DNA of 48,288 nt, from contig JANRLW010000103.1 of assembly GCA_033762295.1 (NCBI GenBank), positions 1 through 48,288 on the forward strand, written 5' to 3'. The stretch comes from Capsulimonadales bacterium. GTDB lineage: Bacteria; Armatimonadota; Armatimonadia; Armatimonadales; Armatimonadaceae. A program made the position numbers and the translations under genes. This document shows positions 16,872 to 48,057 of the stretch, one piece after another. The notes under the pieces were generated by a model that saw nothing but the letters and a program-made list of their open reading frames with translations, searched no databases and was not told where the DNA came from. Position 1 is the first letter of the stretch, and the number at the start of each line of letters is the position of its first letter.

Positions 16872-17624
16872 ATGTTTTCCTTGAACGGCAAAGTGGCGCT
16901 CATCACCGGGGCGGCGTCGGGGATCGGTGAGTCAATCGCCCGCGCATTCTCCGACGCGGGAGCGTTCGTTTACGTCGCCGACCGGGACCCGCGAGGGCGA
17001 ACGGTCGCCGAAAGCCTTCCCGCGTCCTCCTTTCTCTCGGTCGATGTGGCGCAGGAGGACGAGGTGCGCGCAGCGGCGACACAGGTTGAGGCGGAACACG
17101 GACGCTGCGATATTCTGGTCAACAATGCCGGTATCGGCCATGTGGGCACCGTTCTGACCACGACGGGCGCGGATCTCGACCGGTTGATCGCCGTCAACGT
17201 CAAAGGCGTCCTCCACTGGTCGCAGGCATTTCTCCCCGGTATGATCGAACGACGTCAGGGTTCGATCATCAACCTGGCGTCCATCGGCGGAATCGTCGGC
17301 ATCCGTGACCGCTTCGGCTACTGCGCCACCAAGTTCGCCGTGGTCGGAATGACCCGATGCATGGCGCTCGATCACGCGGACAGCGGAGTGCGGATCAACT
17401 GCATCTGTCCCGGACGAGTGGAGACGCCGTTCGTCGCCGCCCGTCTGGCGGAGTACCCGGACCCCGACCGCGCCCGCGCCGAGATGTCCGCGACCCAGGC
17501 GCTGGGACGCATGGGAACCCCGGACGAAATTGCCGCCGCCGCGCTGTATCTCGCCTCGGACGAGGCCGCCTTCGTCACCGGCAGCGCACTCATTATCGAC
17601 GGCGGCTGGAGCGCCGGAAAATGA
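16872..17624 (+). CDS. SDR family oxidoreductase
   Basis: [35 protein letters not shown]. Confidence 0.92.
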
Positions 17625-18391
17625 ACGTCACCGACCTTTTTCGACTCGATGGGAAGGTAGCCCTCGTCACCGGAGGCAGCAAGGGCCTTGGTTATGAGAT
17701 GGCGCGAGCCCTGGCGGAGGCGGGGGCGGATGTCGCCCTGGTCAGCCGGACCGAACATGAAGTGAGGACCGCGGCACAAAGCATCGCAGCCGCCACGGGA
17801 CGCAAGGTCGTTCCGTTCGTCGCCGATGTCGCCCGGACGGACGCCGTTCGTCTGCTCGCCGACGACCTGGACGGGACGTTCGGACAAGTGGATATCCTGA
17901 TCAATAATGCCGGCGTCAATATCCGCGGCTCCGTCGAGGAGTTAAGCGAGGAGGACTGGGACACCGTCATGGCGGTCAACCTGAAGGCCCCGTTCCTCTG
18001 CGCGAAACACTTCGGACCGCGAATGGCCGCTCGTGGGTGGGGCCGCATTATCAATCTGGGATCGATTCTTTCGGTGATTGGCATTCCCGGACGCGCACCC
18101 TACGCCTCCGCCAAGGCCGGTGTCGCCAACCTGACACGCGTCCTCGCTCTGGAATGGGCGGGCAAAGGGGTCACCGTCAACGCCCTCTGTCCGGGACCGT
18201 TCGCCACGGACATGAATAAGCCTTTGCTGAACGATCCGGCAAAGTATCAGGCATTCGTCGCCAAAATCCCGATGGGACGCTGGGGTGAACTGCACGAAAT
18301 CACCGGTCCCGCCCTGTTCCTGGCCTCGGACGCCTCATCCTTTGTCACCGGGACCATGCTTTTCGTGGATGGCGGGTGGACCGCGCAGTAA
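17621..18391 (+). CDS. SDR family oxidoreductase (gluconate 5-dehydrogenase/KduD-like)
   Basis: ATGA overlap with the previous gene. [51 protein letters not shown]. Confidence 0.9.
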
Positions 18392-18397
18392 CCGAAA

Positions 18398-18600
18398 CTA
18401 CCGATAGGACAACGATTGTGACAACTCCCCCGCCTAAAGTCGGGGGCTTCTTGCAGAACGCTTGGGGCAACCCCCTACGTTAGCCTGCAAAGGCAGTGTC
18501 CCTGCCCTTTTTAGAATGTTTATCGCCGCGTTGTGGTCGCGGTCAAGAGAGAATCCGCAATGCTCACAGGTGTACAGACGAACAGACAAATCAATCGGGA
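18398..18600 (-). ncRNA. Predicted TnpB reRNA/omegaRNA (scaffold over the tnpB 3' end and right end; guide from flank 18417-18398)
   Basis: Inferred from the established TnpB reRNA architecture. Several hairpins overlap the tnpB 3' end. The 5' boundary is approximate. Confidence 0.6.
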
Positions 18601-19588
18601 CGGTTGGCAAACAACCGCAGTGACGGCACGTCTGCGTCGTGTGGGACGGGTTCACAGGGGCTATCGAAACGGCGGCACATTCTGCCTTCTGCCTCAATAT
18701 CTCCAGGAACTGCGACCAACCTGCGTCATGCGTAGATTTGGCAAGGTTCAGAGAACGAACCATGCCTTTGACGTTCAAATCTTCGTGGGCGATAAGCCCG
18801 TAGCGGTCAATAAGCGACTTGGCGACCTTGTGATGAAAGTCCTTCCGCTGGTTGGCAACGTGAGCGTGAACACGGGCGAGACGTTTAACCGCCTTGCGTC
18901 GGTTCTTCCCGCCGCGCTTCTTTCGGGCAACCGACCGTTGACAGCGGCGAAGTTTCGCCTGTGCCTTCCGATACAGTTTCGGTGGTTCAACGGATTCGCC
19001 GTCGCTGGTAACGAGGAACGACTTCAATCCGAGGTCAATACCGATAGGCGGATTCGGCGAAGGCTCCGTCACCTTTTGCTCCACCTCGCAGACAAAAATC
19101 ACATACCAGCCGTCCGCACATCGGCGGAAGGTGGCCGTCTTAATTTCGCCCTCCACGGGTCGATGCAGTTTGACCTTGACTTCGCCGACGTTCTGGAAAT
19201 AGGCTTTGCCTTCCTTCGTCAGTTTGGCTCCGTCGCCGATTGTGAAGTCAACGCTGTCGAACTGACCGTAGCCACGGAACCGAGGGTATCGCGCCTTTTC
19301 TCCCGTTTTCAGTCGGCGGAAGAACGCTTGAAATGCGCGGTCAAGCCGCCTGAGGGTTCTCTGACAGGAGGAGAAGTTGCAAAGAGCCAGATACGGGTTG
19401 ACTTTCCGTTCGACTTTAAGTTTGGCAGATTGCTCCCCGTAGGTCACGGTGCGCTGTTCGGACTCGTAGACACACTTCCGTTCGGCAAGGGCATTGTTGT
19501 ACAGGCGTCGATGCGCTTCAAGAAGGCTTGTCATAGCCTCCTCCTGCTCCCTGTTGGGATATGCGCGATACCGAAACGCCCGTTGCAT
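18434..19588 (-). CDS. tnpB: RNA-guided endonuclease TnpB
   Basis: AFRYRAYPN HTH, YPRFR, RuvC-I IGIDLG, RuvC-II IAHEDL, zinc finger CRHCG...CEHCG, RuvC-III DRDHNAAINI. Confidence 0.95.
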   Translation of the reverse strand: MQRAFRYRAYPNREQEEAMTSLLEAHRRLYNNALAERKCVYESEQRTVTYGEQSAKLKVERKVNPYLALCNFSSCQRTLRRLDRAFQAFFRRLKTGEKARYPRFRGYGQFDSVDFTIGDGAKLTKEGKAYFQNVGEVKVKLHRPVEGEIKTATFRRCADGWYVIFVCEVEQKVTEPSPNPPIGIDLGLKSFLVTSDGESVEPPKLYRKAQAKLRRCQRSVARKKRGGKNRRKAVKRLARVHAHVANQRKDFHHKVAKSLIDRYGLIAHEDLNVKGMVRSLNLAKSTHDAGWSQFLEILRQKAECAAVSIAPVNPSHTTQTCRHCGCLPTVPIDLSVRLYTCEHCGFSLDRDHNAAINILKRAGTLPLQANVGGCPKRSARSPRL

Positions 19589-19993
19589 CTATCCGCGTTC
19601 CTTCTGCTTCTCAATGTAGGCTTGGATAACTTCCGCCGATACGTGTCCAGCACTGCCGACGTAATAGCTTCTACTCCAAAGAGACGGGAGACGGGTTTTG
19701 AGGGACGGGAACTCCTCCCGAAGAACTCGCGATGTGAAACCTTTGAACTGGTTGGCGTAGAACTGCGGGGCGTTTGTCGGGGGAACCGCAACGAACAGGT
19801 GAACGTGGTCGGGCATGACTTCAAGCCCTTCGATTTTGACGCCCAGTTCCTCTGCCTTCTGGTAGAGCAGTTCTTTCAGGCGCGTTTCAATATCGCCCGT
19901 AAGTATTTTTCGGCGATACTTCGGGCACCAAACCATGTGCAGATGCAGGTTGAAAACCGCTCCTGCTGTTCTCCGATAACGCGCTTGTGCCAT
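19589..19993 (-). CDS. tnpA: IS200/IS605 HUH (Y1) transposase TnpA
   Basis: LHMVWCPKYRRKIL, HUH motif DHVHLF, LWSRSYYVGSAG, catalytic YIEKQ. Confidence 0.96.
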   Translation of the reverse strand: MAQARYRRTAGAVFNLHLHMVWCPKYRRKILTGDIETRLKELLYQKAEELGVKIEGLEVMPDHVHLFVAVPPTNAPQFYANQFKGFTSRVLREEFPSLKTRLPSLWSRSYYVGSAGHVSAEVIQAYIEKQKERG

Positions 19994-19999
19994 GCGGTT

Positions 20000-20028
20000 A
20001 TTAGACCGCTTTGTTCGTTTGTTGTCAA
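20000..20028 (-). promoter_or_regulatory. Putative sigma70 promoter of tnpA (leaderless-type)
   Basis: Minus strand TTGACA-N17-TCTAAT-N6-ATG. Confidence 0.55.
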
Positions 20029-20155
20029 CTATCTAACGCAGAAAGGAGGGGGGACGGGGTAACGGCGGCTGATACCGCCTTCGGTCGTTCTCGGAAGAAC
20101 GACGAGACAATTCCCCGTGTCGCCTTCAGGCGACAGTCCCCTTGTCTTAATTTTT

Positions 20156-20956
20156 ATGGAACTGACGGGCAAAGTGGCTCTCGTTACCGGGAGCGGACGG
20201 GGTTTGGGATTTGCGATCGCGCAGTCGCTCGCACGGCAGGGAGCGGCCGTCGCGCTCCACGATGTCCGTGAGGACGCACCTGCCGAGTTTGGCGAGTTTC
20301 CGTCGCTTTCCGCTTCCGCCGATGCGATCCGAACCTTCGGAACACCGGTCACTTACGTCGTTGGCGACGTCGCCGACGAAGGGACCGTCGCCCGAATCAC
20401 GGCTGCCGTTGCATCCGAACTCGGGCCGATCTCCATTCTCGTCAACTGCGCGGGCGGTGACATCGCGCTTCGAGGCGGCAAACCAAAACCGAACAACGCT
20501 CTGGGCGTTCCTCTCGAGGACGTTCAGGCCATTCTGAACCGGAACCTCCTGTCCGTGATGCTGGTTTCGCGGGCGGTCTGCCCCGGAATGATCGAACGAA
20601 AGACAGGCAGCGTTGTCAATATCGCTTCGACCGCCGCGCACCTGGGAGTCGCCGACGGAGTCGCCTATGCGGTCGCCAAGGCGGGGGTCGTCGAATTCAC
20701 CCGCTGTCTCGCCGTCGAACTGCGGCCCCACGGGGTCCGTGTCAACGCCGTCAGTCCCGGACCCACCCGAACCGCGCGCTTCCTGAATACCCGCCCGATC
20801 CAATCCGCGCAGATGAGCGAAGGGCCGACTCTGGAGCGATATGGCATCCCCTCCGAAATCGGGGACGTCGTCGCCTTTCTTGCCGGCGACGGGGCGCGAT
20901 TTGTCAGCGGTCAGGTTTTACGGGTCGACGGCGGGGGCGGAACCTTCCCTGCCTGA
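20156..20956 (+). CDS. SDR family oxidoreductase (separated from its ribosome-binding site by the IS)
   Basis: [34 protein letters not shown]. The ATG abuts the IS left end. Confidence 0.9.
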   Translation: MELTGKVALVTGSGRGLGFAIAQSLARQGAAVALHDVREDAPAEFGEFPSLSASADAIRTFGTPVTYVVGDVADEGTVARITAAVASELGPISILVNCAGGDIALRGGKPKPNNALGVPLEDVQAILNRNLLSVMLVSRAVCPGMIERKTGSVVNIASTAAHLGVADGVAYAVAKAGVVEFTRCLAVELRPHGVRVNAVSPGPTRTARFLNTRPIQSAQMSEGPTLERYGIPSEIGDVVAFLAGDGARFVSGQVLRVDGGGGTFPA

Positions 20957-43385: not shown

Positions 43386-46295
43386 TTACTTCCGCGCCGC
43401 CAGGTACCCCCACACATAGATATTGGGAGCCCAGATATCGACCGTGAACTCGTTGGTCGACGGAGCCAGGAAAATATCGAAGTACGCTTCCGTCACCGGC
43501 CAGTCGTTTGCGGGCGGGGTCAGTTGCGGATTGAGGAAGTACTGGTTTACCCATTCCGAGAAATCGGGGATGCTTTTGCGATCCCAGTTCCCGTACACGG
43601 TCAGGCCGGTCGGCGCGGGAACCCCCATCCGTCGTGTGTCGAGAAACAGCGGGTTCTTCGGGGGATTGTTTCCCAGTCCCGTCGTATACGTTCGGTTGCC
43701 CGGATTGCAACCGGCCTGAAACTGCGTCGCCTGAACGGCCCCGGCCAGATACTCGGAACGCTTTGTCAGATAGTGCGCCCGGCAGAGTTCGATCGCATCC
43801 GGCGTCGAAAAGAAACCGAGAATCAGCGGCTTCCCTTTGTCGGGGGTGGTCAGATTGAACGCGTTGCCGCGAGCATACTCAAGTGCCGCATCCGCCTGTC
43901 GGCGAAGCCCGTCCACCGCCGTATCGCGCAGGATCGGATCGGTCAGGCGGGACGGCAGCAGCGTATAGGCGAACGCGGCATCCCGCTGGACCGCCGTTCC
44001 CCAGATAAATAGACTGGTGTTCGGGTCTTTCAGCACCGTTTCCTCCTGAAAGACCTCATGCCACCGGGGGTCCTCGGTCAGTTCGTACAGAATGACCGCC
44101 GCCAAATTGCGGTCGTCCTTCACCGTCCAGGGAAGTTGCTTCAGCGTCCCCGCTTCCTTTCGCTTCGCACGATCCGCTTCCGCCCACAACATCGCTTTCA
44201 ACGCGCTTTCCCGATAGGTCTTCGCCAGTTCGGGCGAGTATTTCTTCAGCAGTTGGGCGGCGCGTCCGGCGACAGCGGCGTAGTAGTAACTGGACGCCGG
44301 GTCCGGGGCATAAACGTACGCGGGCATCGATTGCAGGAAGGAAACCTCGCCCTCGACCGGATCGCCGTCCGTCTCGATGCCGAATGGCACCCCGCCGTCC
44401 GGTTTTTGCAGGCGTCGGAAGCAGTCGATCTCAAACAAGGCCTCGGTCAGGACGTCCGGAACACCGGTCTGATGGGGGATTGGCAGCGTCATTTTGCCGA
44501 AGAACTCCGGAAACAGCTTCAGCATCTCCAGCTGCGCCATCGTCACCCGCATATGCGTCACGCGCCGGGGATTCCAGTCGCCGGCATCGTGGTAACCGCC
44601 CCACGCGTCCGGAACCCGCTGACCGGTACTGCGTTTCGCCAGTTCCGGACTCTCCGACGAACCATCCAGGATCGAATAGGTCGATTGGAACACGGGAACG
44701 CCCAGGGCCGGTTGAAAATCCGGCGGGCGGCGGTAATCGGCGAACGGGGGGGCCAGTTCGACTCCGCTTCGCTCATTGGCCAGACCGCGCATCTGCACCC
44801 GAAACGCCTTCTCCCAGACATCGGCGGCAATCGAAAACGGGTAGGAGCAGCCCATACCATCGACGACGATCCGATACCGTCCGGGGGTTCGTACCCCCGA
44901 AAAGTCCATCCGATAGACATTCGTTTTGGAGAAGTTGTCGGCTCTTTGCAGCTGTTCGTTCTCCTGCATACCGAGAACCTTTTCCACTTTTCCCGTGAAA
45001 ATCGCCTTACCGGACATATCTTCCACGACCCGGAAGTTAAGCGTATCGGGGTAGGTGTACGGGCCGCCCGTCCCCATCCACAGGGAGAGAAAAGCCCGCT
45101 TCACGGGGTCATCCGGACGATACCCGATCTGATGGACATGGATGGCTTCCGAACGAACGCGGTCGACATCGGCGCTCAGCACCGCCAGGGGCTTTTTCAC
45201 GTTAATCCCCTTCAGGCCGATCAGGTGGGCGCGTCCGGTCCCGAGCGGTCGCCCCATTTTCAGATAGATCGTATGCTCCATCGCAAAGACCTTCGATGGC
45301 TGAGCCCAGTCGGTCGCGCGTGTCTTCCGAAATACGGCGATCGGTTGGGCGCCGTCCACGCTGTAGTTCGCCGGCTGGTCCGCCGCGAACGTCAGAAGCG
45401 GGTCGCCGATAAACTTCTCAAAGGTGACCAGATGGTCCCGCTTACCGTCAGGGACAAACGCGCCGCCGATCAGCCATCCGACCTCCTGCCCGCCCCGTTT
45501 CAAAATGACCTGACGGTCCCGCTCGACACGTTCGTCACCGGCCTGCGGCGCATAGGGCGCCAGAGTCGACGGAACCACCCGTCCGGACTGAATCGTCAGA
45601 CTGATGACATCCGGAGCGACGCGGGAAACCTGCCGGATGACCGGAGCATCCGGCGCCCCCACACGATACCGGGCCGACAGCGCCTCCTGCTCCTTTCGCA
45701 CTCGCTCCCGCTCGTCCGCGTCCTTCCGCTCCTTCTCCGCCCGGGCCGCCAGGATCTCGGCGTTTGCCGGAATGATCCCGATCGATTCCACCTCGATGTC
45801 ACAGGGCTTGTCAGACCAATCCCCCAGAATCTGCCACTGCCGTACCCGAGAAAGGTCGAAGGGGACCCCCTGCTTCTCCAGCGACATCGGCGTTCGTAGC
45901 GCCGTTCCGCCGCGCGCATACACGGTCACGAACTCCTCGCCCGCAGGGGGCACAACGAATTCGTACGTCGCGGCCTGTTCACCCGCATCCCGTAGCAGAA
46001 CCCGCAAAAGGCCGACTTTGTTTTGCGGTCCCACCCGCAGCTTCAGGTACGGACTGTCCTCCGCCGACGCGGAAAGGTCGAGCGACACATTCGCGCCGCC
46101 GCCTCCCTGCCCCGTTACCCCGTCGCCCCGCAATCGTGCCTTTCCCGCGACGACCGAGGCGCGGTTCTCCCACGAACCGTAGGTGAACTGAAACGGCGTA
46201 TCGAACTCGGACAGTACCAGCGGAGGCGCTCCGCAGACCCCCCCAGCAAACCAGACAACGCAAACGCCAGCCGAGAACGCACGAGCGAGAGACAT
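43386..46295 (-). CDS. Secreted glycoside hydrolase family 9 with N-terminal accessory domains
   Basis: Signal peptide; Ig-like HVHQIGYRP...DFS...PGRYRI; catalytic GGYHDAGDW; C-terminal YTTGLG and NEFT. Confidence 0.85.
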   Translation of the reverse strand: MSLARAFSAGVCVVWFAGGVCGAPPLVLSEFDTPFQFTYGSWENRASVVAGKARLRGDGVTGQGGGGANVSLDLSASAEDSPYLKLRVGPQNKVGLLRVLLRDAGEQAATYEFVVPPAGEEFVTVYARGGTALRTPMSLEKQGVPFDLSRVRQWQILGDWSDKPCDIEVESIGIIPANAEILAARAEKERKDADERERVRKEQEALSARYRVGAPDAPVIRQVSRVAPDVISLTIQSGRVVPSTLAPYAPQAGDERVERDRQVILKRGGQEVGWLIGGAFVPDGKRDHLVTFEKFIGDPLLTFAADQPANYSVDGAQPIAVFRKTRATDWAQPSKVFAMEHTIYLKMGRPLGTGRAHLIGLKGINVKKPLAVLSADVDRVRSEAIHVHQIGYRPDDPVKRAFLSLWMGTGGPYTYPDTLNFRVVEDMSGKAIFTGKVEKVLGMQENEQLQRADNFSKTNVYRMDFSGVRTPGRYRIVVDGMGCSYPFSIAADVWEKAFRVQMRGLANERSGVELAPPFADYRRPPDFQPALGVPVFQSTYSILDGSSESPELAKRSTGQRVPDAWGGYHDAGDWNPRRVTHMRVTMAQLEMLKLFPEFFGKMTLPIPHQTGVPDVLTEALFEIDCFRRLQKPDGGVPFGIETDGDPVEGEVSFLQSMPAYVYAPDPASSYYYAAVAGRAAQLLKKYSPELAKTYRESALKAMLWAEADRAKRKEAGTLKQLPWTVKDDRNLAAVILYELTEDPRWHEVFQEETVLKDPNTSLFIWGTAVQRDAAFAYTLLPSRLTDPILRDTAVDGLRRQADAALEYARGNAFNLTTPDKGKPLILGFFSTPDAIELCRAHYLTKRSEYLAGAVQATQFQAGCNPGNRTYTTGLGNNPPKNPLFLDTRRMGVPAPTGLTVYGNWDRKSIPDFSEWVNQYFLNPQLTPPANDWPVTEAYFDIFLAPSTNEFTVDIWAPNIYVWGYLAARK

Positions 46296-46551
46296 ATCTC
46301 TAATTCTCCTTCAAAACACCGCACACTCCGGAAAATACCGGGGACCGAAAGCCCGCCCGGTTTCCCGACTCTCCCATTATCGGCGGTCTTCCGAACGGCA
46401 ATCAGTCCCGTAGACCGATCCACGTAAAACTTAACTTACCGTAACCGACGGTGAGGGTTTCGTCAAGAACGAAGCCGGGCGGAAGGAGATCCCGTCGCCC
46501 CGTCGAATCCTGAGGAAGCAATCCTCAACGGCGACTTCAACGGAGTAAACC

Positions 46552-48057
46552 ATGCCCCTTTTCCTTGGTTTGGATACCGGCACCAGCGGCACCAAAGCGG
46601 TGCTGACCGACGAAAGCGGCGCGCTTCTAGCGACCCATACCCGACCGTACGAACTGTCCACACCGCAACCGCAATGGGCCGAACAACATCCCGAATCCGA
46701 CTGGTGGGACGCCGCATGTGAAGCCATTGCCGCCGTTCTGAGTCACGCCGGCATCTCCGGCGACCAGGTGGGCGCGGTGGGCCTGACCGGGCAGATGCAT
46801 GGATCGGTCTTCCTCGATGCCAACCATCGTGTACTCCGTCCGGCCCTTCTCTGGTGTGATGCGCGAACCGGGGAAGAATGCGTCGAAATCACCGAAGCGA
46901 TCGGGGGACCGGACGCCCTCTACGCAACCATCGGACAGCCGGTCTTCACCTCGTTTACCGCCCCGAAAATCCTCTGGCTGCGAAAGCATGAGCCGGAAAA
47001 CTTCGAAAAGGTCGCCCATGTCCTCCTGCCCAAGGATTTCATCCGCCTGAAGCTGACCGGCGAGTTCGCGACCGATGTTTCGGACGCCTCCGGCACGTCG
47101 CTGCTCGATGTCCGCGCCCGGCGTTGGTCGGACGCCATGCTTGCCGCTCTCCGACTTCCGGCCGAATGGTTTCCGGCCGTTTTCGAATCGGTGGAGGTGA
47201 CCGGTACCGTCACACGCGAAGCCGCAATGATCACCGGCCTGAAGGAGGGGACGCCCGTCGTCGCCGGCGGAGGCGATCAGGCGGCGGGCGCGGTCGGCTG
47301 CGGCATCGTTGAAAACGGAGCGGTCTCGCTCTCCCTCGGGACGTCCGGCGTGCTTTTCGCCCACCTGGACCAACCCTTTTTTGCCCCGGAGGCCATTCAA
47401 ACCTTCTGCCACGCCGTACCCGGCAAGTGGCACATGATGGGCTGTGTCATCTCCGCCGCCGGTTCCTTCGAATGGTACCGCGATACCTTCGCTCCGGCCG
47501 AACCCTACGAATCCATCACGGCGCGGGCCGCTTCCGCTCCCGCCGGATGCGAGGGCCTGATTTTTCTCCCCTACCTCGCCGGTGAACGCAATCCCTACTT
47601 CGACCCGGAGGCGCGGGCCGTTCTGTTCGGTGCGACCCGACGGACCGATAACGATTTCGTCGCCCGTGCGGTCCTGGAGGGGGTCGCCTACGGGTTCCGG
47701 GACCTGTTCGGACGCCTGAAAGAGACCGGCACCGAAGTCGGCGAGGTGCGCGCGATCGGCGGAGGGATCAAATCCCCCCTGTGGCGACAAATCCTCGCCG
47801 ATGTCACGGGAAAAACGCTCTGCCGGATGAACATCGAGGAAGGTCCGGCCTTCGGTGCGGCGCTTCTGGCCGCCGTCGGTACGGGCACGTTCGCCTCCGT
47901 CCCGGAAGCCTGCGCCGCGACCCTGCGTACCGTCGATTCCACAATACCCGATCGTTCCGTCGGTCCGGTCTACGACGGCTATTATGCCATCTACCGTCAG
48001 CTGTACCCGCTGCTGAAGGACGCGTTCCACGCCGTCGCCGAACGCAGCCGTTCGTAA
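46552..48057 (+). CDS. xylB: Xylulokinase (FGGY family)
   Basis: LGLDTGTSGTKA, GLTGQMHG, RPALLWCD, FTAPKILW, LLPKD, DVSDASGT, GGGDQAA, FLPYLAGER. Confidence 0.93.
   Translation: MPLFLGLDTGTSGTKAVLTDESGALLATHTRPYELSTPQPQWAEQHPESDWWDAACEAIAAVLSHAGISGDQVGAVGLTGQMHGSVFLDANHRVLRPALLWCDARTGEECVEITEAIGGPDALYATIGQPVFTSFTAPKILWLRKHEPENFEKVAHVLLPKDFIRLKLTGEFATDVSDASGTSLLDVRARRWSDAMLAALRLPAEWFPAVFESVEVTGTVTREAAMITGLKEGTPVVAGGGDQAAGAVGCGIVENGAVSLSLGTSGVLFAHLDQPFFAPEAIQTFCHAVPGKWHMMGCVISAAGSFEWYRDTFAPAEPYESITARAASAPAGCEGLIFLPYLAGERNPYFDPEARAVLFGATRRTDNDFVARAVLEGVAYGFRDLFGRLKETGTEVGEVRAIGGGIKSPLWRQILADVTGKTLCRMNIEEGPAFGAALLAAVGTGTFASVPEACAATLRTVDSTIPDRSVGPVYDGYYAIYRQLYPLLKDAFHAVAERSRS

Follow-up and report, generated by a model that had tools for sequence, protein, structure and literature searches.

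Structure of the locus

We analyzed a stretch of 48,288 nucleotides from a Capsulimonadales bacterium (GenBank assembly GCA_033762295.1, contig JANRLW010000103.1, positions 1 to 48,288; referred to as the window), which contains a transposable element of the IS200/IS605 family. The element is located exactly between the ribosome-binding site (RBS) of a short-chain dehydrogenase gene, AGGA followed by 8 nt, and the ATG of this gene. A comparison with related elements suggests that their left ends may bring along a replacement for the separated RBS, built around an outward-facing Shine-Dalgarno (SD) motif. Three short-chain dehydrogenase genes, followed by a glycosyltransferase gene, make up the host locus:

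16872..17624, plus strand: first short-chain dehydrogenase
17621..18391, plus strand: second short-chain dehydrogenase, the upstream neighbor
18406..18409, plus strand: host RBS AGGA, 8 nt before the junction
18418..20155, minus strand: IS200/IS605-family element, 1,738 bp, tnpA then tnpB on the same strand, without target duplication, ends in agreement with relatives
20156..20159, minus strand: target tetranucleotide CCAT (ATGG on the plus strand, the host start codon plus one base) and predicted transposon-adjacent motif (TAM) of TnpB
20156..20956, plus strand: third short-chain dehydrogenase, intact, 266 aa

The ATG at position 20156 is likely the true start of the third dehydrogenase, because 13 of the 14 orthologues found in 40 relatives searched align from query residue 1-3 and five relatives (L010-L014) have an ATG in the identical alignment column, with AAGGA 6 nt upstream. 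In a further relative (L015 in genome G017) the orthologue of the second dehydrogenase lies directly before that of the third; the latter is frameshifted near residue 61-71. An empty allele of this locus was not found among the 40 relatives. Their orthologues are just 53-66% identical at the protein level, and the empty allele is therefore not comparable here at the level of single bases. One DNA sequencing run (share 0.07) gave reads on pieces of tnpB only, with neither junction covered. The third dehydrogenase seems dispensable; at E 1e-60 it was detected in only 14 of 24 family genomes.

The element itself is a textbook member of the IS200/IS605 family (IS605 group) carrying tnpA and tnpB. 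Its GC content is 0.55, compared with 0.64 in each flank. The following features were assigned:

19589..19993, minus strand: tnpA, Y1 HUH transposase, 134 aa, HVH at residues 63-65, Y126
18434..19588, minus strand: tnpB, RNA-guided nuclease, 384 aa
20137..20140, minus strand: left guide GGGA, positions +16 to +19
20118..20135, minus strand: inner hairpin of the left end, 7-bp stem and 4-nt loop (fold prediction)
20105..20147, minus strand: extended stem-loop of the left end (71-nt fold), outer stem 20147-20142 with 20110-20105, purine internal loop between
18418..18450, minus strand: right end with guide GAAG (18450-18447), hairpin (18446-18427) and terminal TCAC (18421-18418)

TnpA matches PF01797 (E 1e-39) and scores above the cut-off of NF033573; judged from its sequence, it looks intact. 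TnpB matches PF12323, PF01385 and PF07282, covering HTH, RuvC and zinc finger, and reaches 301 bits with NF040570 (cut-off 100); it stays under the cut-off of the narrower model NF038281 (284 vs 425). The acidic RuvC residues D185, E269 and D351 are retained together with the zinc-finger cysteines, and TnpB, too, appears to be intact. The closest named relative is an Armatimonadota record with a TnpB 76% identical, which makes this phylum the probable one of the host. The same genome contains no second copy, only a tnpB fragment and two relatives with the target TTCAT (ATGAA on the other strand). These two IS605 elements are located on contigs C130 (~50300-52050) and C69 (~151970-153250); the ATGs at their junctions open reading frames of 121 and 356 aa, and in each of them an outward-facing AAGGAG(G) follows behind the stem of the end. 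A distant Y1 gene (REP-associated-like) lies between long inverted repeats on contig C75 (~46160-46810).

Target and boundaries in related elements

In this family, the guide tetranucleotide 5' of each hairpin pairs with the target or cleavage tetranucleotide. An earlier note on this DNA had described the element along these lines, with CCAT and GGGA at the left end, TCAC and GAAG at the right end, and AGGA plus 8 nt in the flank. All of these motifs are present, and GAAG sits immediately 5' of the right-end hairpin. Both ends carry subterminal hairpins in the predicted folds and are without terminal inverted repeats.

A left-end pattern that did not contain CCAT was run against 401 genomes from the phylum and against six selected ones. 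This unbiased search yielded 48 unique matches with loci. A good hairpin was present in 29 of them; this element is among the 29, and a single genome contributes 14. CCAT was found at the predicted place in 25 of these 29 ends, shifted by 1-2 nt in three and missing in one; among the 19 matches with a weak hairpin, two had CCAT. The nearest relative has the same ends (CCAT, 15 nt, GGGA; terminal TCAC). Right ends obey the guide rule in both types seen, GAAG-TCAC and CAAG-TGAC. Rebuilt targets were compared with relatives at six sister sites, of which four agree through the junction, including one with identity at every base. At the other two the right flank is unlike that of the relatives, and some rebuilt targets are therefore rearranged or misassembled. 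At the level of sequence comparison, it holds that CCAT is the target, that no target duplication is formed and that the empty allele equals the joined flanks. The boundaries, the guide logic and the CCAT target of the earlier note were borne out.

Mismatched left and right flanks (a common right flank with different left flanks, or flanks unlike relatives) were observed at L309 and L313, L174 and L160, which we ascribe to rearrangement between copies or to misassembly. A gene-less derivative of ~400-500 bp with the same ends occurs in genomes G016 (L160, L328-L340), G023 and G042, with 14 left ends in one genome. The copies in G012 (L126, L016) have 11 extra residues in the C-terminal part of TnpA compared with this element (432 nt span for 134 residues).

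Insertion sites at start codons

CCAT pattern scans of metagenome and viral contigs together with genome searches gave at least 157 unique sites; every further ATGG in these host flanks served as a control. The statistics on 131, 55 and 50 sites rest on CCAT sites among the matches listed, and the remaining site comparisons in this section are likewise among the matches listed. An open reading frame (ORF) of 60 or more codons follows 74 of 131 sites compared with 440 of 1,118 controls, a weak test because, in this genome of high GC content, it is also passed by 55% of all ATGG. Pfam scans covered the first 100 codons of 74 frames from the 131 sites and of 132 frames from 330 sampled controls. 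The hits were tallied by hand, a domain being counted as intact if profile position 1 lay inside the frame, and 1 and 2 repeat-domain rows were omitted. An intact N-terminal domain was observed at 16 of 131 sites and 9 of 330 controls, a truncated one at 5 and 20, respectively.

Two stricter measures were based on gene structure. Sites were called start-like if an open frame was combined with a nearby upstream stop and either an SD or a -10 box. Among the 55 rebuilt targets, which are the sites having a right end apart from the element's own, 15 are of this kind; the control ATGG yield 39 of 1,615, and the genome-wide share is 2.2%. A crude codon model assigned 14 of 50 sites to starts compared with 71 of 1,509 controls (4.7%), and one of 50 sites to the interior of a gene compared with 575 of 1,509 controls (38%); in this gene model, the residual class mixes intergenic with missed genic sites, and mismatched flanks would hide some intragenic cases. 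Intragenic copies are purged or avoided, and copies at starts are five- to elevenfold enriched and constitute roughly 27-45% of the sites. The enrichment at start codons raised in the earlier note is supported by these sites, and it runs against the general depletion of insertion sequences (IS) upstream of genes reported in PMC2942039. For elements with the target TCAT in phage contigs (L346-L467), an ORF of 60 or more codons was observed at 59 of 86 sites and at 305 of 959 control ATGA. In genome G252, a copy sits at the start of the only hslU found. A FabF-like gene in G397 was rejected as an example of an essential target, as it has three paralogues.

Survivorship and accessibility alone might account for this distribution. 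TnpA needs CCAT in unstructured single-stranded DNA, start regions are A/T-rich and weakly folded, intragenic copies would be purged, and the copies at starts would be knock-outs of dispensable genes; an SD-like tract in the element would then be a stretch of pyrimidines that was inherited and serves a different purpose, for instance as promoter spacer or terminator tail. The preference for single-stranded DNA is published (PMC7290912), the left end of IS200 is reported to carry a terminator (PMC4513863), and folding is weaker at the target sites than at control ATGG (-2.1 vs -3.7 kcal/mol). The patchy occurrence of the dehydrogenase and the paralogues of the FabF-like gene also fit. Where the site has no ORF, however, targets and controls do not differ significantly in folding (-2.8 vs -3.4, p 0.29), so that weak folding may be a consequence of the starts and not their cause. 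Moreover, knock-outs at starts should be purged like intragenic ones, yet the two classes shift in opposite directions.

Outward Shine-Dalgarno motifs in the left ends

Control left ends were collected for the targets TCAT, TTAT, TTAC and TTAG; counts of clusters with and without the motif are among the matches listed. An outward SD of at least 5 nt at normal spacing was found in the tip in 9 of 86 tip clusters, compared with 1.8-2.5 in shuffles. Behind the stem, an outward SD of at least 6 nt occurs in 21 of 72 CCAT clusters (shuffles 5.9) and 16 of 45 TCAT clusters (shuffles 3.8), but in 0 of 45 TTAT, 1 of 40 TTAC and 0 of 11 TTAG clusters. In sum, 37 of 117 CAT clusters have an outward SD behind the stem-loop compared with 1 of 96 non-CAT clusters, and the same motif is found on the opposite strand in 9 of the 117.

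The SD behind the stem is a match to the tail of 16S rRNA. Along the sequence it mostly lies 48-60 nt from the ATG, and predicted folding reduces this mostly to 4-14 nt. An SD of at least 5 nt at this folded spacing is present in 59 of 116 CAT clusters, 12 of which are tip motifs needing no fold, compared with 11 of 96 non-CAT clusters. At six positions of the bridging outer stem, 72-86% of 121 clusters are paired, every type of Watson-Crick pair being represented, although the stem is also needed as DNA. Among 120 CAT clusters, none has both a tip and a bridged SD; 26 have the tip form only, 52 the bridged form only and 42 neither (p 3.5e-8). Looser clustering resulted in 0, 16, 32 and 26, respectively. 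This mutual exclusion is as expected of two solutions for one need. The observations suggest that CAT-target left ends may supply a split replacement RBS.

Three other roles of the motif were rejected. An anti-SD for the element's own gene would require an SD before the first gene, which is found in 0 of 36 elements. As a pairing partner of the GAGG/GGGG loop it was dismissed as well, since 14 of 46 GGGG ends have the SD motif and three a CCCC run. For an internal outward mini-ORF behind the bridged SD, a start codon follows the SD in only 7 of 52 cases.

The match to the 16S tail, the restriction to CAT-target ends and the exclusion of the tip SD are left unexplained by survivorship and accessibility alone. 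The SD state is not linked to start occupancy, which agrees with that explanation; on balance we consider it rather unlikely. Active targeting could produce the same motif statistics, including the restriction to CAT targets and the exclusion of the two forms. Here, CCTCCTT on the transferred strand would pair with the SD of the coding strand or the nascent mRNA, tether the single-stranded circle and free the strand carrying CCAT. The geometry would set the CCTCCTT tract opposite the tip, and an SD lies upstream of 18 of 55 rebuilt targets compared with 163 of 1,615 controls. This enrichment, however, is seen only where an ORF is present (14 of 32 sites vs 4 of 23 that lack one). Insertions also occur at leaderless starts that have a -10 box but lack an SD (L016, L129), and possession of the tract does not make elements clearly more prone to starts. 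Targeting by the tract appears improbable to us.

Several observations weigh against a replacement RBS, in addition to the weak ORF test, the crude gene model and the two mismatched sister sites mentioned above. Neither SD form was found in 42 of the 120 CAT clusters in the windows scored, this element included, and the SD is often partly paired in predicted folds. An outward -10 box before the bridged SD is not above chance (14 of 50 vs 11.4 in shuffles), and the transcript would therefore have to come from read-through or from an unrecognized promoter. The presence of an SD does not significantly raise the share of elements at coding starts, either for CCAT (30 of 73 vs 23 of 63 without SD, p 0.6) or for TCAT (38 of 73 vs 3 of 12, p 0.12). 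Finally, CCAT and TCAT ends share their architecture; the clusters are thus not independent and the p-values overstate. A TnpA tree with 52 rows, none of them TCAT, had an unsettled bootstrap and was used for no claim.

The left end of the present copy

In this copy, a candidate motif is located at the foot of the left-end structure:

20042..20049, plus strand: outward-facing SD motif AAAGGAGG, candidate for the split replacement RBS of the gene that starts at 20156
19994..20028, minus strand: promoter-like TTGACA-17-TCTAAT, 6 nt 5' of the tnpA ATG (leaderless start), read by eye, promoter scanner silent

The motif AAAGGAGG lies 106 nt from the host ATG behind three hairpins. A predicted stem of 20050-20059 closing on 20136-20141 leaves about 14-15 unpaired nt to the ATG. 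Given this distance, the intervening hairpins and the spacing, rescue of the dehydrogenase is plausible but weak or absent, and a split RBS in this copy would be borderline. In the lowest-energy fold AAAGGAGG is paired, and opening costs about 3 kcal/mol; a terminator-like hairpin is present on the plus strand at 19994-20009 (four found vs 2.7 in shuffles). Both points speak against a functional replacement here and, together with the three hairpins, indicate that the dehydrogenase may be weakly expressed or silent behind the element. The scanner called no outward promoter in this element. Two other routes were dismissed: by eye, the tip of this copy has no -10 box for a leaderless rescue, and the in-frame GTG at 20117 has no SD before it. 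The earlier note had stated that the insertion leaves the ORF intact and uncouples it from its RBS. The ORF of 266 aa is indeed intact; the uncoupling is probably incomplete, with many relatives, and perhaps this copy, bringing their own outward SD.

The first genes of 36 elements (this one and 35 related) look leaderless, with no SD in any of them and a TANNNT box ~6 nt before the start in 19. At the right end, TCAC puts GTG at the former ATG position, and the host RBS therefore now faces a mini-ORF of 21 codons (18418-18483, plus strand), antisense to the omega-RNA region. A search of Rfam gave no match within 18300-20300 at E up to 1.

TnpB and the excised allele

TnpB has been reported to cut the scarless donor joint, thereby raising the retention of the element (10.1101/2023.03.14.532601). 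Following that description, the guide of the omega-RNA would be derived from the host flank:

18398..18417, minus strand: predicted omega-RNA guide, antisense to the host RBS

By analogy, the TAM of TnpB is inferred to equal the target CCAT, and its target at this locus would be the restored junction of CCAT and the anti-RBS sequence. TnpB should hence cut the excised allele. No CCAT with an 8-nt seed site for the predicted guide is present elsewhere in the genome.

According to the earlier note the element could act as a reversible gene switch; as an adaptive device, insertion would turn the dehydrogenase off and scarless excision would turn it on. TnpA looks intact, and ISDra2 derivatives without tnpB excise at a frequency of about 2e-3, tenfold higher after irradiation, precisely and in a way that can restore a gene (PMC2806898). 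In the present element TnpB looks intact as well, however, and TnpB is reported to act by cutting the excised allele, which favors retention (10.1101/2023.03.14.532601). The target genes of the element copies are mutually unrelated, and re-insertion at one of ~33,700 ATGG sites is unlikely except via TnpB-driven copying. Scarless excision is common to every family member and not special to this site. We did not retain the proposal of a switch, which we regard as highly improbable.

Proposed mechanism

Based on the family comparison and the predicted folds, we slightly favor the following explanation. The element is a peel-and-paste IS605 member with the target CCAT, whose copies at starts persist because the left end supplies a replacement RBS, while TnpB would guard the filled allele. 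In the first step the DNA guide GGGA would select CCAT on single-stranded DNA, as seen in relatives and with the chemistry as published. Since CCAT reads ATGG on the opposite strand, start codons make up a small share of the targets. Copies inside genes would be purged, in line with their strong depletion, and copies at start codons would persist at roughly ten times their background share. The presumed reason for this persistence is that the left end, read outward, could serve as replacement RBS in one of two exclusive forms. In the first form the SD would lie within the 15-nt tip. In the second, an SD ~50 nt away behind the left-end stem-loop would be folded next to the host ATG to give a split RBS. 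TnpB would then guard the filled allele by cutting the excised one.

A more general version of this proposal, for which we see the case as evenly balanced, is that IS200/IS605 lineages with CAT targets have made start codons a safe harbor. The stem-loop bound by TnpA would double as the bridge of a split RBS, with the tip SD as the alternative. If true, this would explain how a selfish element that is so widespread manages not to damage its host, and the left end would gain a second function at the RNA level. The element would rewire translation initiation of any gene it has landed on, and many genes in diverse bacteria and phages would be translated from transposon-supplied signals that annotation tools have missed.

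Comparison with known systems

The present element differs from IS608 of Helicobacter pylori and ISDra2 of Deinococcus radiodurans in its target, CCAT instead of TTAC or TTGAT, in a G+C-richer guide, and in the outer stem and outward SD motif of its left end. A TnpB with the predicted TAM CCAT would widen the mostly A/T-rich set of TAMs. In common with both elements are a Y1 HUH TnpA, TnpB, subterminal hairpins, a tetranucleotide guide 5' of each hairpin and insertion 3' of a fixed target without duplication (PMC7290912, PMC2806898).

A text search of the literature returned nothing on CCAT in connection with TnpB or IS605, with figures, supplements and subscription papers outside its scope, and titles and abstract starts gave nothing on an outward SD of IS605 or on its targeting of start codons. 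Insertion directly before an ATG tetranucleotide has been described for IS605B and ISC elements with the target N|ATGA, confirmed by empty loci (PMC4810608), and for ISGst5 with the TAM TTCAT (10.1101/2023.03.14.532601). The present target, in contrast, is N|ATGG, and the accessible text of these two papers describes no replacement RBS; the term 'start codon' is absent from the main text of PMC4810608. New here are the comparison across the family with controls, the spacing after folding, and the finding that the tip and bridged forms exclude each other.

Insertion sequences can drive neighboring genes (PMC3196728), and there, too, a start codon directly adjoins the end of the element, from which signals for expression may come. 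Those cases concern transcription, whereas here the signal would be translational and its base-exact placement is set by the target motif. The closest parallel for the bridged form is the split RBS of phage T4 genes 25 and 38, in which a stem-loop between SD and AUG shortens the distance from 27 to 11 nt and from 22 to 5 nt, respectively (PMC3014915). In our predictions a stem-loop likewise brings the SD near the AUG; unlike in T4, the bridge would be a transposase-binding end of ~45 nt, with the SD in a mobile element and the AUG in the host. If the proposal is true, these elements would be a translation-level counterpart to the self-splicing IStrons.

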